From: an uncultured archaeon
Lineage (GTDB): Archaea > Iainarchaeota > Iainarchaeia > Iainarchaeales > 0-14-0-20-30-16
Reading direction: 5' to 3'
NCBI GenBank assembly: GCA_964480435.1
Contig: CAYZSS010000010.1
Span: 1 to 29,091, forward strand
DNA: 29,091 bases
Positions 2,305 through 29,091 of the stretch are shown here, one piece after another; positions within the stretch are counted from its first letter, which is position 1; each line of letters starts with the position of its first letter. The position numbers were made by a program, and so were the translations under genes. The notes below the pieces were generated by a model that was given only the letters and a program-made list of their open reading frames with translations, made no database searches and had not been told where the DNA came from.

Positions 2305-2378
2305 AGGATCACTTTTTATTAATTTGCCCAGGAATAATGTTTATAGCTAAGTATGCTTGAGCGAAGCGAAACATACAA

Positions 2379-2411
2379 TTTTGGGTAACTTACCCTTTAT
2401 TAAAAGGGCAG
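2379..2411 (+). repeat. tRNA-flanking hairpin motif, copy A (ends at position -1 of tRNA-Ser)
   Basis: TTTTGGGTAACTTACCCTTTATTAAAAGGGCAG. Internal stem ACCCTTT/AAAGGGT-like (CCCTTT..AAAGGG). Near-identical to copies at 2550 and 20449. Confidence 0.85.
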
Positions 2412-2494
2412 GCAGGGGTAGCGAAGTGGCTAACGCGTCAGACTGCTAATCTGATCTCCGTAAGGAGGCGAGGGTCCGAATCCCTCTCCCTGCG
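2412..2494 (+). tRNA. tRNA-Ser (anticodon GCU), class II with long variable arm
   Basis: Manual cloverleaf: acceptor GCAGGGG/TCCCTGC (one G-U), D arm GCG..CGC, anticodon stem TCAGA/TCTGA with loop CTGCTAA. Variable arm CTCC-GTAA-GGAG, T arm GAGGG-TCCGAAT-CCCTC, discriminator G. No encoded CCA. Confidence 0.9.
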
Positions 2495-2495
2495 T

Positions 2496-2529
2496 CCAGC
2501 CTTTTGAAAAAAGGCTAGGTTTGCCAAAA
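2496..2529 (-). repeat. Degenerate inverted copy of the hairpin motif (copy F) abutting the tRNA-Ser 3' end
   Basis: Minus-sense TTTTGGCAAACCTAGCCTTTTTTCAAAAGGCTGG aligns with the motif: TTTTGG-CAA-C-TA, a T-run/A-run hairpin, then a C-G end. Confidence 0.5.
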
Positions 2530-2549
2530 CCTCATGTAGAGGGATTCAT

Positions 2550-2583
2550 TTTTGGGCAACTTACCCTTTTCCTAAAAGGGCAG
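2550..2583 (+). repeat. tRNA-flanking hairpin motif, copy B
   Basis: TTTTGGGCAACTTACCCTTTTCCTAAAAGGGCAG, 34/34 identical to 20449..20482. Confidence 0.9.
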
Positions 2584-2606
2584 TTCGAATCCCCCTCTCT
2601 GCGTCT
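2584..2606 (+). pseudogene. Diverged duplicate of the tRNA-Ser 3' end (T-loop to discriminator region)
   Basis: TTCGAATCCCCCTCTCTGCGTCT matches 2475..2497 (TCCGAATCCCTCTCCCTGCGTCC) at 19/23. It carries a canonical TTCGAAT T-loop. No matching 5' tRNA portion lies adjacent. Confidence 0.6.
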
Positions 2607-7655: not shown

Positions 7656-8333
7656 ATGCCTGTAATGAATAATGGTTTTGCCCAGATTCCAAACGGAAAC
7701 AAAAAAACCGCTTTGGGTTTAGCAGCATTTATTTTAGTTATTAGCGGGGCAGCAGGATTTATAAGGTATTTAGATGATGAAAATAATAAGTTTTTATTGT
7801 CTGACTCCGCAGTGCTAGGTAAAGCAACCAAAGAAAGTTTGGCAAAAATACATAGTCGCCAAATAATAGAATTAGAATCTATCTTTGGTGTAAGCATTGA
7901 TCATTCTGTTAGTGCTAATTTATTTTTGAAGAATATAGAACCCAAAAAACTGATTTTTAACTTAATTAAATTAAGGTTAAGAAGAGAAATAAACCAGCAA
8001 GTTCTTCCTGATTGGTTAACCCCTATTTATGATAAAATAAACTCTTCTAGTAAAGAAGATCTAATGTATCTTTATGATAGGGTTAAGAAAATAAAAAGTT
8101 TTTCTCACGAATTAAAAGACCCGGATCAATTAAGAGATTGGCGTAAATTTAAACATGAGAGAAAAAAGAAGGTTAATAAATTTCAGACTAACTTAATAGA
8201 AAGAGAAAAAGTAAGAAGAATGGTTTTAAATGCTCGTGCAAAAAGATTTGGCGAAAAAAGATTTGAAAGGCCTGGAACAGGAAGATCCGCTTCTTTAGAA
8301 AGAACAAGATTTAGACCTCAACATAGGATATAA
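7656..8333 (+). CDS. Hypothetical membrane-anchored protein, paralog 1
   Basis: N-terminal hydrophobic helix ALGLAAFILVISGAAGF. Colinear similarity to 8510..9190 (IFG, IEPK, LP..P.Y.KINS, ARAKR). Identical C-terminus ERTRFRPQHRI. TAGTGAT Shine-Dalgarno-like site upstream. Confidence 0.7.
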   Translation: MPVMNNGFAQIPNGNKKTALGLAAFILVISGAAGFIRYLDDENNKFLLSDSAVLGKATKESLAKIHSRQIIELESIFGVSIDHSVSANLFLKNIEPKKLIFNLIKLRLRREINQQVLPDWLTPIYDKINSSSKEDLMYLYDRVKKIKSFSHELKDPDQLRDWRKFKHERKKKVNKFQTNLIEREKVRRMVLNARAKRFGEKRFERPGTGRSASLERTRFRPQHRI

Positions 8334-8509: not shown

Positions 8510-9190
8510 TTGGTTAAAGAATTTATTCCTGATGTAAAAACTAGTTCTTCTGGTTCGTTGCCTTATTTTTTGATTGGAGTTTCGCTTTTGGGGTTCTTGA
8601 TAACACTTGGAATTATAAAAAACAAAATCGAATATGCAAAACTAGTAAAAAAACAATTATCCTCAAAAACAATAGATTTAATGGAAGATAATATTACTAA
8701 ACAACTGACTGCTTTGGAAAAAATATTTGGTGATGAAACTATTTTTAATACAAAACTAATTAAAATGTTAAAAGAACAAGCAATAGAACCTAAGGAATTA
8801 GTTATTGACTTAATAAGAGGCAGAGGAAAAATAAATCCACAAATTCTGCCCGAAGAAATCGTTCCTTTGTATAGAAAAATCAATTCTCTGGAGCCTAAGG
8901 AATTAGAAAAATTCTATTATGAAGTAAATAGGCTTAAAGGAGTAGAATTAGAACTAACTAACCCAGAACAAAAAAAAGAATGGTATGAATTTAGAAAACT
9001 TAGGGAAGACCGGGCAAAACAACAAGTAAATGAAATCCAATCCAGAATGATGAAACAAGGGCGTGTAAAAGAATTAGTTCTAAGGGATCGTGCTAAAAGA
9101 GCAGAAAGATATAAAGCTCGTGAAACTCCCAGAACCGGAAGACTAGCATCTGCTGAAAGAACAAGATTTAGACCTCAACATAGGATATAA
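8510..9190 (+). CDS. Hypothetical membrane-anchored protein, paralog 2
   Basis: TTG start preceded by GGTGAT. N-terminal helix YFLIGVSLLGFLITLGII. Colinear with paralog 1 and shares the same C-terminal 11 aa. Confidence 0.7.
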   Translation: MVKEFIPDVKTSSSGSLPYFLIGVSLLGFLITLGIIKNKIEYAKLVKKQLSSKTIDLMEDNITKQLTALEKIFGDETIFNTKLIKMLKEQAIEPKELVIDLIRGRGKINPQILPEEIVPLYRKINSLEPKELEKFYYEVNRLKGVELELTNPEQKKEWYEFRKLREDRAKQQVNEIQSRMMKQGRVKELVLRDRAKRAERYKARETPRTGRLASAERTRFRPQHRI

Positions 9191-12006: not shown

Positions 12007-13461
12007 TTATTCGCTTTTATAGATTTTATCAATTAACCCATTTGGATCTTCATAGTATTTTTGGATATTTTGAGTAACGTCTAAATAACTTTCAATATTA
12101 TTTTTTATAAACCAATCTAAAATTTTTCCTCTGAGTTTTATTTCATCCATAACTTTGATTTTGTCTACTCCTAGTGCTTTTGAAATAGTTTCTATTGTTC
12201 TTGATGGCACTGAAGTTCTGCACATGTTTTCTTTTTCTGTATCGTATTCAAAAATGTTACTTAGTAGGGCTTTGTTTTCCATTCTTTCTAGCTCTGCAAG
12301 TTCTGAAACATATCTTGTAATACCTTTTCCAGGGTAATACTGCTTTTTAATGCTTATAATTAAGTTTAACAAAGGAATATTGGTCTCTGGTATTGACATA
12401 GGCTCGCTTTTTAGGCGTATAAATGCCTCTTTTGAATTGTTGGCGTGCAAAGTACCTAATAGCCCATTATGGCCTGTGTCCATTGCTGTAAACATGGTTC
12501 TTGCCTCTTCCCCTCTTACTTCTCCAACAATGATTCTATCTGGTCTCATTCGTAAGGAGTTTTTTAATAGCATATCCATGGTTATTTCTTCGGTTGTGCT
12601 TGTTTTTGGTCTTGCTTCAAGTGATACCCAGTTTTCTCTATCTGATAAATTTAGTTCAGGGGTATCTTCAATAGATAAAATTCTTTCATTATATCTGATA
12701 AATGAGGTTAATGCAAATAACATAGTGGTTTTTCCGCTTCCAGATCCTCCAATAACTAAGGTGTTTTGAGGAGCTACACCTAGGCCATCTATACAAACCC
12801 AAAGAAATGAAGCTAACTCTTTAGAAATGGTTTTATTTTTTATTAATGCAACTATGGAAAGTGGTTTTTTTGTAAATTTTCTTATTGTAATTGTTGGGCT
12901 GAATGGACTAACATAATTTGAAGTAATATTTATTCTTGACCCGTCGGGTAAACGGCCGTCTAGAACTGGATTCTGGTCATCTACTTTTTTTACTGTAATG
13001 GCTTGTAATTTGTTTATAAAAGTAGAATATTCTTCAGAGGTAAATGTGATGTTTGTCTTGCATAACCCTTCTTTTTTGTGGAATAAAAATATTTGTGAAT
13101 CTAACCGATTTACCATAATATCTTCAATGTCATCATTGTCAAAAAAAAAGCTAAGTCCGCCATATCCGCAAAGATAAAGGGCAATTGGTTCAACTTGTGT
13201 TATATTCCCAAACCCTGATTTTTGCAAAATATCTTTTACTGCTTTGTTTAGCTCAATAAGTTCTAAAGAGGATGGAAAAAGGTTGCTTGATAGGTAGATG
13301 TCTAATTTATCTATTTGCTCTGTTAAAAAAGAACTGTTTGTTTTATTTTTTGTGAGGTCTTTGATTTTTTTAATGACATTATAAATTTCATCTCTATTTT
13401 GTATTTTATAAATTTTAAAAGGATAATTTTGTTCAATAACGTAATCAGGCATGGACATCAC
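12007..13461 (-). CDS. Type II/IV secretion-family ATPase (archaeal FlaI/PilB/VirB11-like)
   Basis: Walker A GGSGSGKTT, Asp box ILSIEDTPEL, Walker B RPDRIIVGEVRGEEA, His box GHNGLLGTLHAN. Confidence 0.85.
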   Translation of the reverse strand: MMSMPDYVIEQNYPFKIYKIQNRDEIYNVIKKIKDLTKNKTNSSFLTEQIDKLDIYLSSNLFPSSLELIELNKAVKDILQKSGFGNITQVEPIALYLCGYGGLSFFFDNDDIEDIMVNRLDSQIFLFHKKEGLCKTNITFTSEEYSTFINKLQAITVKKVDDQNPVLDGRLPDGSRINITSNYVSPFSPTITIRKFTKKPLSIVALIKNKTISKELASFLWVCIDGLGVAPQNTLVIGGSGSGKTTMLFALTSFIRYNERILSIEDTPELNLSDRENWVSLEARPKTSTTEEITMDMLLKNSLRMRPDRIIVGEVRGEEARTMFTAMDTGHNGLLGTLHANNSKEAFIRLKSEPMSIPETNIPLLNLIISIKKQYYPGKGITRYVSELAELERMENKALLSNIFEYDTEKENMCRTSVPSRTIETISKALGVDKIKVMDEIKLRGKILDWFIKNNIESYLDVTQNIQKYYEDPNGLIDKIYKSE

Positions 13462-17701: not shown

Positions 17702-17832
17702 TTCCATTACTAGCTTTTTTTATAACCATTTCTTTAGATCTTGCGAAATTTCTTTTTTTATAGTAGTCCAAACAATTATATACCTTGTTTTTGTTATATA
17801 TATGGTCTTATCTAGACGCGTAGGTGATTTTT

Positions 17833-19434
17833 ATGAATGCTGAACAAAAGAAATTATACAATACTTTAAACGAGCATAGAAAAGCATATGTTAATTTTGA
17901 TATCCCTGATGAAAAAAATGGGGAATATCTTCTGTGTGTATTTCACTTTTTGCCAAATAAAAAGTTAAATGTTTTACAAGCTGCAGCAGAGATTTCTGCA
18001 GAATCATCAACCGGAACAAATTTTAAAGTAAGTACTGAAACAGCATTTTCAAGAAAAATGAATGCTTTAGTTTACAAAATAGATACAAAAAAAGAATTAG
18101 TTTGGATTGCATATCCTTGGAGATTGTTTGATAGGGGCGGAAATATACAAAACATACTTACTTACGTGGTAGGAAATGTTTTAGGAATGAAAGAAGTAAA
18201 TGCTTTAAAATTATTAGATATGTGGATACCACCGGCAATGTTGGAACAGTATGATGGGCCATCTTATACTCTTGACGATATGAGAAAATATTTGAATGTA
18301 CATGGTAGACCTATTTTAGGAACAATAATTAAACCAAAAATGGGTTTAACTTCCGCTGAATATGCTGAAGTTTGTTATGATTTTTGGGTTGGTGGAGGGG
18401 ACTTTGTAAAAAATGATGAGCCCCAGGCAAACCAAGATTTCTGCCCTTTTGATAAGATGGTTTTGCATGTAAAACAAGCAATGGCTAAAGCAGTAAAAGA
18501 AACAGGCAAGAAAAAGGTGCACTCATTTAATGTATCTGCTGCGGATTTTGACGAAATGATAAGAAGATGTGAATTAATTAGAAATGCTGGATTTGAGCCA
18601 GGAAGCTATGCCTTTTTGATTGATGGCATTACTGCTGGTTGGATGGCTGTCCAAACATTAAGGAGAAAGTATCCTGATGTGTTTATACATTTCCACAGGG
18701 CCGCACATGGCGCTTTTACTAGACCTGAAAATGCATTTGGATTTAGTGTTCTGGTATTGTCTAAATTTGCAAGATTAGCTGGAGCAAGTGGAATACACAC
18801 AGGAACAGCAGGAATAGGAAAAATGGAAGGTACTCCTGATACAGATATAATTGCTGCAAAAGAGATTGAGAACCTAAAAACAACGGGACCATTTTTTGAG
18901 CAATCTTGGTCAAAGATTCCAGAAAGAGATAAAGATATGATTAAACTTGTGCAGGAAGATTTGGCACACCATGTAATTCTTGAAGATGATAGTTGGAGAG
19001 GGGTAAAGAAATGTTGCCCAATAATATCAGGTGGATTAAATCCAACTTTATTAAAGCCATTTATTGATGTAATGGGCAGTGTAGATTTTATTACTACGAT
19101 GGGGGCAGGCTGTCATGCTCATCCTGATGGTACTCAGGCAGGTGCTAAAGCTTTAGTGCAGGCCTGCGAAGCATACAAAAAAGGAGTATCAATAGAGGTA
19201 TATGCAAAGACCCACAAAGAATTAGCAAGAGCAATTGAATTCTTTGGAAAAAATAAAACAAAAACTAAGGATAAGAAGCCAACTAAGACAAAAAAAATAA
19301 GTAAACCAAAAAAAGCTTTGCCAAAGAAAATAACTAAAAAAATAAAAAAAGTTACTAAACCTAAAGTAGTAAAAAAGGTAGTAAAAAAAACACCAAAGAA
19401 AAAAGCAGTAATTAAAAAAGTAAAAAGGAAATAA
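17833..19434 (+). CDS. rbcL: RuBisCO large subunit, form III / II-III type, with a lysine-rich C-terminal extension
   Basis: AESSTGT, GNVLGMK, KPKMGL, GGDFVKNDEP (carbamyl-Lys/Asp/Glu), HFHRAAHGA, GIHTGT, SGGLNP and GAGCHAHPDG are all present. AGGTGAT Shine-Dalgarno site before ATG 17833. Tail from about 19249. Confidence 0.9.
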   Translation: MNAEQKKLYNTLNEHRKAYVNFDIPDEKNGEYLLCVFHFLPNKKLNVLQAAAEISAESSTGTNFKVSTETAFSRKMNALVYKIDTKKELVWIAYPWRLFDRGGNIQNILTYVVGNVLGMKEVNALKLLDMWIPPAMLEQYDGPSYTLDDMRKYLNVHGRPILGTIIKPKMGLTSAEYAEVCYDFWVGGGDFVKNDEPQANQDFCPFDKMVLHVKQAMAKAVKETGKKKVHSFNVSAADFDEMIRRCELIRNAGFEPGSYAFLIDGITAGWMAVQTLRRKYPDVFIHFHRAAHGAFTRPENAFGFSVLVLSKFARLAGASGIHTGTAGIGKMEGTPDTDIIAAKEIENLKTTGPFFEQSWSKIPERDKDMIKLVQEDLAHHVILEDDSWRGVKKCCPIISGGLNPTLLKPFIDVMGSVDFITTMGAGCHAHPDGTQAGAKALVQACEAYKKGVSIEVYAKTHKELARAIEFFGKNKTKTKDKKPTKTKKISKPKKALPKKITKKIKKVTKPKVVKKVVKKTPKKKAVIKKVKRK

Positions 19435-20275: not shown

Positions 20276-20306
20276 AAAAAAGAAAAATAAGGAAAAGAAT
20301 AAAAAG

Positions 20307-20378
<72 letters not shown>

Positions 20379-20410
20379 ACTGCCTTTTTCCAAAAAGGCA
20401 AGTTGCGAAA
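20379..20410 (-). repeat. Degenerate hairpin motif copy D abutting the tRNA-Thr 5' end
   Basis: Minus-sense TTTCGCAACTTGCCTTTTTGGAAAAAGGCAGT is followed directly by G1 of tRNA-Thr. It shares GCAACTT, a hairpin and CAG with the 34-nt motif at nearly the same distance from the tRNA start as copy A. Confidence 0.65.
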
Positions 20411-20448
20411 AAGGCATATCCCTCTGGGATATCGCGGTGGCTCAGTTG

Positions 20449-20482
20449 TTTTGGGCAACTTACCCTTTTCCTAAAAGGGCAG
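20449..20482 (+). repeat. tRNA-flanking hairpin motif, copy C
   Basis: TTTTGGGCAACTTACCCTTTTCCTAAAAGGGCAG, 34/34 identical to 2550..2583. Confidence 0.9.
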
Positions 20483-20502
20483 CCACTGAGCCACAGAAGC
20501 AC
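20483..20502 (-). pseudogene. Orphan duplicate of tRNA-Thr positions -2 to 18
   Basis: CCACTGAGCCACAGAAGCAC is 20/20 identical to 20361..20380. Similarity continues into the adjacent GCCTTTTT..AAAAAGGC hairpins, about 45 nt in total. Confidence 0.7.
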
Positions 20503-28997: not shown

Positions 28998-29017
28998 ACT
29001 CTTTTTTTGAAAAAGAG
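28998..29017 (-). terminator. T-run hairpin immediately 3' of tRNA-Phe
   Basis: Minus-sense CTCTTTTTCAAAAAAAGAGT follows the discriminator base directly. tRNA-Thr is followed by the same CTCTTTTT. Confidence 0.5.
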
Positions 29018-29091
29018 TGGGAAGAGAGGGATTTGAACCCTCGACACATAGGTCTTCAGCCTATTGCTCTTCCGGACTGAGCTACCTTCCC
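29018..29091 (-). tRNA. tRNA-Phe (anticodon GAA), 5' end coincides with the window edge
   Basis: Reverse complement is GGGAAGG-TA-GCTC-AGTCCGGAA-GAGC-A-ATAGG-CTGAAGA-CCTAT-GTGTC-GAGGG-TTCAAAT-CCCTC-TCTTCCC-A. No encoded CCA. Confidence 0.9.

Follow-up and report, generated by a model that had tools for sequence, protein, structure and literature searches.

Antisense copies of tRNA sequence in hairpin inserts at duplicated tRNA gene ends of an uncultured archaeon and its relatives

Inserts at the tRNA genes of an uncultured archaeon and its relatives carry, next to a dispersed hairpin motif, a short inverted copy of the tRNA sequence beside which they lie (here called the arm). The arm-bearing insert is a real and general feature, and is a miniature palindromic mobile element of a new variant. 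For the origin of the arm, we give about even chances to a target-derived inverted copy, made by template switching during the DNA-level insertion of a small mobile hairpin into a tRNA gene. The stretch of DNA analyzed (the window, 29,091 nucleotides) is contig C10 of the source genome G000 (assembly of 724 kb, 31% GC, 77% complete). Relatives used for comparison included G027, from another family than G000, and G116, a member of the same order.

DNA of the source genome was found in lake-water metagenomes, and a contig of a Ca. Iainarchaeum archaeon carried the same motif-T-loop junction as the source genome. A 593-nt contig from run X4 aligned from window position 20448 onward, starting at contig letter 41. 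The Rfam search of the window returned three tRNAs and nothing else. At positions 29017-29091 a tRNA-Phe seems to run on into the end of contig C20 of G000, where a long-stem motif variant lies directly before tRNA-Phe. Elsewhere in the window, two adjacent ORFs (7656-8333 and 8510-9190; 225 and 226 aa) have a 70-nt 3' repeat in common and similar upstream regions, and are probably tandem paralogues. The RuBisCO large-chain gene (17824-19434) has a 536-aa frame, above the usual length, with the catalytic domain matched in two stretches. A tRNA-Ile with the anticodon UAU, which is uncommon among archaea, was located on contig C12 of G000 (12833-12906) and also in G001 and G027 (L119; L084).

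Two tRNA loci of the window carry the 34-nt motif together with an arm. The first comprises the following features:

2379..2411, plus strand: motif-family copy A, with its 3' foot at position -1 of tRNA-Ser and no arm
2412..2494, plus strand: tRNA-Ser(GCT) gene, intact
2496..2529, minus strand: motif-family variant on the antisense strand, its foot directed to the tRNA 3' end
2530..2542, plus strand: short hairpin (4-bp stem, 5-nt loop), its 3' side overlapping the arm; possibly the turn of a fold-back
2533..2547, plus strand: Ser arm, perfect at 2538-2547 against tRNA positions 57-66, and 13/15 over positions 57-71
2550..2583, plus strand: 34-nt motif copy B, with its 3' foot fused to T54 of the duplicate
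2584..2603, plus strand: duplicate of tRNA-Ser positions 54-73, with 3 differences

The second locus comprises these:

20306..20378, minus strand: tRNA-Thr(GGT) gene, intact
20380..20412, minus strand: motif-family variant, with its foot 1 nt ahead of position +1 of tRNA-Thr and no arm
20416..20432, no strand assigned: perfect 7-bp hairpin module, of a type that precedes several motif copies in the source genome
20437..20446, plus strand: Thr arm, a perfect reverse complement of 20485-20494 and 20363-20372 (positions 7-16)
20449..20482, plus strand: 34-nt motif copy C, identical to B, with its 3' foot fused within the D-loop as read on the tRNA's antisense strand
20483..20502, minus strand: positions 1-18 of tRNA-Thr and 2 nt of its leader, duplicated exactly

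A preliminary description of this DNA had reported a 10-nt segment antisense to the neighbouring tRNA at each locus, and these complementarities were confirmed. The Ser segment is the exact reverse complement of 2478-2487 and also pairs with the duplicate at 2587-2598, with 2 extra nt on the duplicate side; the Thr segment matches both of its listed partners exactly. The Ser arm was found to be longer than described, extending over the 15 positions listed above. As tRNA-Thr lies on the minus strand, its arm on the plus strand is the tRNA sense sequence, and motif copy C is antisense to the transcript. One design had been claimed for the two tRNAs. Relative to the motif this stands, the order being arm, 2 nt, motif, 2-3 nt and paired stretch at both loci, but relative to transcription the loci are opposite, with the Ser insert in sense orientation in the trailer and the Thr insert antisense in the leader. 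From the genome-wide 10-mer frequency, the chance of a 10-mer of the neighbouring tRNA (either strand) ending ≤5 nt from the motif was about 1e-3 per locus. The argument against coincidence was upheld far beyond the two loci, by cognate-versus-swapped tests on 40 inserts across genomes. The motif recurs exactly a third time, again with the Ser arm, at tRNA-Ser(GGA) on contig C2; the flanks there are like those of the window Ser locus, and judged by them this copy is not independent of that locus. The sequence in common lies both upstream and downstream (window 2340-2604; G000 C2 20497-20859), which suggests that one tRNA locus was duplicated from the other or that the two exchanged sequence by gene conversion.

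The source genome has three exact copies of the 34-mer, and the family with its variants has at least 35 copies in G000. Members are built of a T-run, a short variable core and a hairpin with a T/A loop, and the 3' foot abuts the target. Feet were located just ahead of tRNA position +1, on the antisense strand just past tRNA 3' ends, close to the 3' ends of introns, within tandem arrays and in the 5' portion of three open reading frames. Contigs C11, C15 and C28 carried tandem arrays, and each of the two window loci had an inverted pair. In the genus, 19 of 71 tRNAs had a foot just 5' (sense strand) and 15 of 71 just 3' (antisense strand), with a background of 0.00075; this near-equal placement on the two strands at tRNA edges points to DNA. 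Copies at tRNA edges had no target duplication. A role of the position -1 copies as a substitute for missing RNase P was ruled out, as RNase P RNA is present in G000.

Long tRNA introns in the source genome were packed with the same hairpin modules and had a motif foot near the splice site (G000 C2 23919-24376, C9 27449-27781, C11 23313-23489 and C25 3699-3855); the hairpin-filled introns measured 385 nt (Trp), 258 nt (Tyr, in a gene called Asn by ARAGORN), 104 nt (Thr) and 85 nt (Gly). Motif copies lay in the putative 5' part of ORFs with the frame unbroken (L212:1546-2469, L213:1211-1849 and L214:1348-1860), one of the ORFs being an O-methyltransferase. A nucleotidyltransferase and HepT-like pair (toxin-antitoxin type) was found directly ahead of a tandem motif array (L207:481-1276). 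The same motif variant, fused to T-loop sequence, stood at a contig end in a record named Ca. Woesearchaeota (L167).

When motif copies were compared for the presence of an arm, an inverted match of at least 6 nt across the motif was found in 9 of 35 (1.3 after permutation). These nine were five in-register arms at tRNA duplicates, two Ser arms viewed from the neighbouring inverted copy, and two palindromic tandem units. About three quarters of the 35 copies in G000 were without an arm, which indicates that the arm is not required for insertion, and five near-exact motif contexts from metagenomes showed no clear arm by eye. The expectation that other copies would carry a locus-matched inverted segment was thus borne out for copies fused to a tRNA duplicate, which mostly had an arm, but not for most of the 35. 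Arms accompany duplicate-type inserts rather than the motif as such.

Duplicate-type inserts were collected by pattern and tRNA searches in G000 and relatives, giving 186 tRNA loci and 40 curated inserts. The usual layout starts with an intact tRNA and a spacer of 1-4 nt, followed by a perfect hairpin of 6-9 bp, then by arm and motif, and ends in a duplicate that mostly begins at T54. The motif hairpin is fused into a loop of 7 nt, which is the T-loop for sense-strand inserts and the D-loop for antisense-strand inserts. Duplication covers the stretch between the fused loop and the acceptor-stem end, and the tRNA thereby remains whole. Upstream of the hairpin, the arm is a reverse-complement copy of the duplicated stretch and ends at the complement of its first few bases. 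Inserts were about 65-160 nt long and gene-free, with the inverted copy 30-45 nt from the junction; duplications in arm-bearing inserts were about 12-60 nt. About 25 of the 40 began at T54 (partly ascertained by the search pattern) and the Thr locus did not; other junctions lay near positions 57, 59 and 61-62 and in the antisense D-loop. The first hairpin was common to several tRNAs in relatives, and in G027 and other families the arm sits between two element-borne modules. In some G027 inserts a second right-end module stood in place of the T/A hairpin, with the same first hairpin and arm, and at one Val(GAC) locus the hairpin and arm were kept and the duplicate was lost (L075, L087, L104 and L096).

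Further searches for such loci were mostly negative. A protein-based locus search with the neighbouring Pus10 gene gave no match. The pattern with the junction at position 57 gave 15 hits, control hits were about as many, and one of the six inspected was a real insert. In 196 genomes the antisense D-loop junction pattern recovered the window locus only, two other hits not being at tRNAs; a single antisense-strand duplicate-type insert was found in the 186 tRNA loci and the 196-genome pattern search together. One scan of viral contigs yielded no motif-T-loop junction.

Arms were matched to their own tRNAs beyond what unrelated tRNAs gave. The own tRNA ranked in the top 5% of about 150 tRNA ends for 10 of 35 inserts, against 4 of 128 tRNAs without a duplicate. 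Swapping arms among the 18 targets in G027, which has about 18 such inserts, gave P = 1e-5 (Watson-Crick score and duplex energy alike), and for 23 inserts outside G027 arms fitted their own tRNA better than others (permutation P = 6e-4); these permutation P values are overstated, as related elements make the loci non-independent and the inserts and arm window were chosen by eye. Position 57 was tracked in G027, with A57 facing T in 9/9 and G57 facing C in 7/8. Arm ends shifted with the junction, from 54-57 for a junction at 54 to 62 for a junction at 61. Across 28 alignable arms, positions 57-59 were matched in 25-27 and positions 67-73 in 10-16. Duplicates were perfect over positions 54-73 in 14 of 40 inserts and arms carried several mismatches, so that by sequence the arms often look older than the duplicates. 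Certain arms were common to different tRNAs, and the Ser(CGA) arm of G000 fits another Ser tRNA; both show inheritance. Arm substitutions of the G.U-compatible kinds (C>T and A>G) numbered 18/125, against 10/220 for G>A and T>C (P = 0.002). This lean could reflect selection for sense-strand pairing or deamination of the non-template strand, which yields an excess of C>T and A>G. Several inserts had no detectable arm, including those at Met(CAT) and Arg(CCT) in G000.

Some 8 of the 40 duplicates had G at the invariant A58 or started at 59 after the same four bases (L003, L005, L033, L071, L075, L099, L144 and G000 C2 Gln(TTG)). This resembles the behaviour of a reverse transcriptase at m1A58; no such enzyme was found, and some of the cases are orthologous. 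A split tRNA or a T-loop intron was considered and dropped, as duplicates often lose the invariant A58 and C61 and no consistent bulge-helix-bulge was seen by eye; splicing endonuclease is present.

The preliminary description had proposed, as one possibility, that the design is a by-product of foldback or template switching, and the analysis supports this. In the template-switching model an enzyme would join the element's 3' end to single-stranded DNA folded as a cloverleaf. The freed 3' end would be extended, rebuilding the tRNA end as the duplicate. The extending end would then switch to the displaced strand and copy backwards to give the arm, halting 2-3 nt short of the junction and being sealed to the element's 5' end, and the resulting long palindrome would later be shortened by deletion. 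At the Ser locus, the observed letters would result from a complete inverted copy with its turn at 2530-2542, followed by one deletion between two 4-nt GAGG microhomologies. Short, imperfect, locus-matched arms may have arisen by later template switching and by selection against arms that misfold the tRNA, those remaining having the duplicate or a local hairpin as a buffer. We infer every enzymatic step of this model.

Several observations were counted for template switching. The order of direct, inverted, motif and direct segments is as fold-back synthesis would leave it, and such synthesis would explain both the polarity of the arm and its end 2-3 nt short of the junction. One and the same 34-mer stands beside two unrelated perfect arms, one from a T-arm and one from an antisense D-arm, which fits local writing of arms. 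The tracking of position 57 by G027 arms, where a wobble pair would suffice, and the movement of arm ends with the junction were counted likewise, as were the many motif copies without an arm and the placement of feet at tRNA edges on both strands. The antisense strand of tRNA-Thr is predicted to fold as a cloverleaf, with the junction in a 7-nt loop beside the acceptor stem, mirroring the T-loop of the sense strand. Template switching both makes and repairs hairpin stems, and perfect stems are documented to arise from it (PMC8794818); in yeast, fold-back synthesis leaves inverted copies of 5-34 bp at breaks (PMC11724301). Like such duplications, the inserts have nearby sequence repeated as a short reverse complement, in the order direct, inverted, direct; they differ in recurring at one structural site and in being tied to a mobile hairpin. 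Counted against the model were the greater divergence of arms than of duplicates, the arms common to different tRNAs together with the non-cognate Ser(CGA) arm, the G.U-compatible lean of the substitutions, and the single antisense-strand duplicate-type insert and lack of an enzyme found. In addition, an arm between two element-borne modules would need two switches, or later conversion, if written locally.

That the arm is instead heritable within the element and acts as a DNA guide is possible, though we consider it unlikely. The single-stranded element would pair with positions 57-66 of the tRNA gene and insert 2-3 nt away; the duplicate would be a target duplication, and new specificities would come by mutation or by occasional rewriting through template switching. 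The position of the arm is fixed between conserved modules in several families, related arms occur at tRNAs with the same or a similar T-arm, and the best-matched arm positions adjoin the junction as a seed would, although this profile is also expected from conserved T-loop bases and local alignment. Most motif copies were inserted without an arm, however, and identical 34-mers with unrelated arms require a rewriting step in any case. The closest known parallel is IS608 of the IS200/IS605 group, which is alike in the candidate choice of target by DNA-DNA pairing beside a hairpin. The IS608 extension pairs upstream of the cut and, to our knowledge, IS608 insertion makes no long target duplication; arm-bearing inserts here have the longer duplications given above and no linked transposase. 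Engineered IS608 is retargeted by a complementary stretch of 8-13 nt set 3 nt away from its native site, and this stretch can be masked in a local hairpin (PMC5934647); a local hairpin is likewise formed by many of the arms. The natural IS608 guide is 4 nt, and long guides have been engineered only (PMC5934647). Three motif bases can pair across the junction in the predicted folds of both loci, inconsistently across variants. Y1 transposase (PF01797) was not found in G000, G005 or G027 (77-83% complete). A stronger form of the guide reading, which we hold to be more doubtful still, takes the insert as a mobile element found in nature, protein-free and about 70-100 nt long, and the arm as a rewritable DNA address of 10-15 nt, recopied from each new target and used by an enzyme to find tRNA-gene loops through base pairing.

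A role of the arm in RNA, either sequestering the decoy duplicate or switching the folding or processing of the pre-tRNA, appears improbable. Folding was predicted without modified bases or proteins. Between 15 and 37 C the Ser arm lay on the duplicate in 72-86% of the ensemble and on the tRNA in 1-15%; for the Thr arm the values were 98-99% and about 1%. Acceptor-stem pairing was predicted to be nearly constant (Ser 0.90 to 0.88, Thr 1.00 to 0.97). The preliminary description had the segments pairing with either the tRNA or its duplicate, which is true of the sequences as complements, but in the predicted ensemble of folds the duplicate prevails (72-99%, against ≤15% for the tRNA). An RNA switch, also suggested there, is not supported, as the arm is predicted to lie on the duplicate with the tRNA acceptor stem barely affected, no two folds being comparably populated. 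With the duplicate removed in silico, the Thr arm paired with the tRNA at 97-98% and the Ser arm at 0%, from which the duplicate would buffer the Thr arm. A role for the arm-duplicate helix is favoured by its formation in the predicted ensemble, by the G.U-compatible bias of arm changes, and by two duplicate changes at tRNA-Gln(TTG) that suit the arm better than the tRNA does. The same bias is, however, also expected from non-template-strand deamination, the arm fits the tRNA better than the decayed duplicate at four other loci, the motif has opposite orientations relative to the two transcripts (sense at Ser, antisense at Thr), and the G001 orthologues of both tRNAs are without the insert. 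For a guide-RNA role, no C/D or H/ACA Rfam family was found in the window and no C or D box was visible beside either arm.

Still less probable is an account of the inserts as shrunken tyrosine-integrase islands, with the duplicate as attR and the arm as an inverted arm of the attP core, parted from the crossover by the hairpin. A T-loop class of tRNA-targeting tyrosine-integrase elements was reportedly described by Williams in 2002, and its elements are like the inserts in having an intact tRNA and then a duplicate of the 3' end beginning in the T-loop. Most junctions here coincide exactly with G53/T54, where the T-loop has its 5' edge (partly selected by the search pattern), and archaea commonly carry partial tRNA duplicates left by integrating elements (PMC9897764). 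Unlike elements of the T-loop class, the inserts are gene-free, occupy many tRNAs of a genome, may lie on either strand, and have an inverted copy. One Xer-sized recombinase (about 284 aa) was present in each of G000, G005 and G027, none beside an insert, while the same modules occur at about 18 tRNAs of one genome and junctions also fall at the other positions given above. Chance or assembly artefact is barely credible: T-arms are self-complementary and alike, which makes weak matches easy, several inserts lack a detectable arm, and public contigs from four DNA runs were broken at the motif repeats, but the cognate-versus-swapped tests were significant, tRNAs without a duplicate showed no excess (4/128 at P ≤ 0.05, against 10/35), the design recurs in separately assembled genomes, and the motif-TT-tRNA-Ser junction is present in a second sequencing run.

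Enzymes that might move the element were sought in incomplete genomes, where a divergent or virus-borne enzyme would be missed. Reverse transcriptase (PF00078) and Cas1 (PF01867) were each found in 0 of 5 genomes, all incomplete. No GIY-YIG enzyme was found in G000, G001 and G005, and the hits in G002 and G027 had no motif in their flanks. The Y1 genes of G002 and G116 had ends without the motif. One IS200/IS605-like unit (L183, G002 C9) comprises a Y1 transposase and a divergent gene of 379 aa that may be TnpB; it lies upstream of tRNA-Lys(TTT), stopping about 100 nt short of it, and its ends are also without the motif. Ten genes adjoining motif copies included no HUH gene, and the neighbours of non-tRNA copies were ordinary or unknown genes.

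The literature search found no description of the hairpin family, most subscription papers being outside its coverage. Compared with the part of the REP/BIME account considered here (PMC3333891), which proposes rolling-circle-like amplification for BIMEs and links REPs to RAYT (TnpA-REP, a Y1 HUH enzyme), the motif is alike in being a dispersed imperfect hairpin of 30-40 nt with a stem mismatch, often in inverted pairs and tandem arrays. As far as that part goes, the motif differs in starting with a T-run and having no 5' GTAG at the foot, in the absence of any Y1 gene found in the source genome and of a motif-flanked cognate HUH gene, and in its strong preference for tRNA-gene edges and loops, and only the inserts here have long duplications and locus-matched antisense arms. 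Set against the parts of the known accounts considered, the insert behaves most like REP/BIME hairpins (PMC3333891) combined with the tRNA-end duplication of integrase scars (PMC9897764). The inserts depart in defining features from REP-RAYT, IS200/IS605, integrase islands, casposons and guide RNAs. Casposons duplicate tRNA 3' ends, and no Cas1 was found here. Rickettsia palindromic elements insert in reading frames, as three motif copies seem to do. We know of no antisense arms in either.

Even with the arm as a by-product, the inserts would be the sign of an insertion process that recurs, recognizes tRNA genes by their folded shape in single-stranded DNA of either strand, and places a copy of target sequence in the insert. 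Should the arm act as a guide, it would be a reprogrammable DNA address of natural origin that exceeds the 4-nt guides of IS200/IS605 in length. A rewritable address of this kind would be the natural counterpart of the IS608 variants engineered to carry long guides, and would amount to a new system for programmable insertion. The insertion process could account in part for the long repeat-filled introns and spare ends acquired by tRNA genes of DPANN archaea, and for the confusion in annotation that such tRNA fragments cause.
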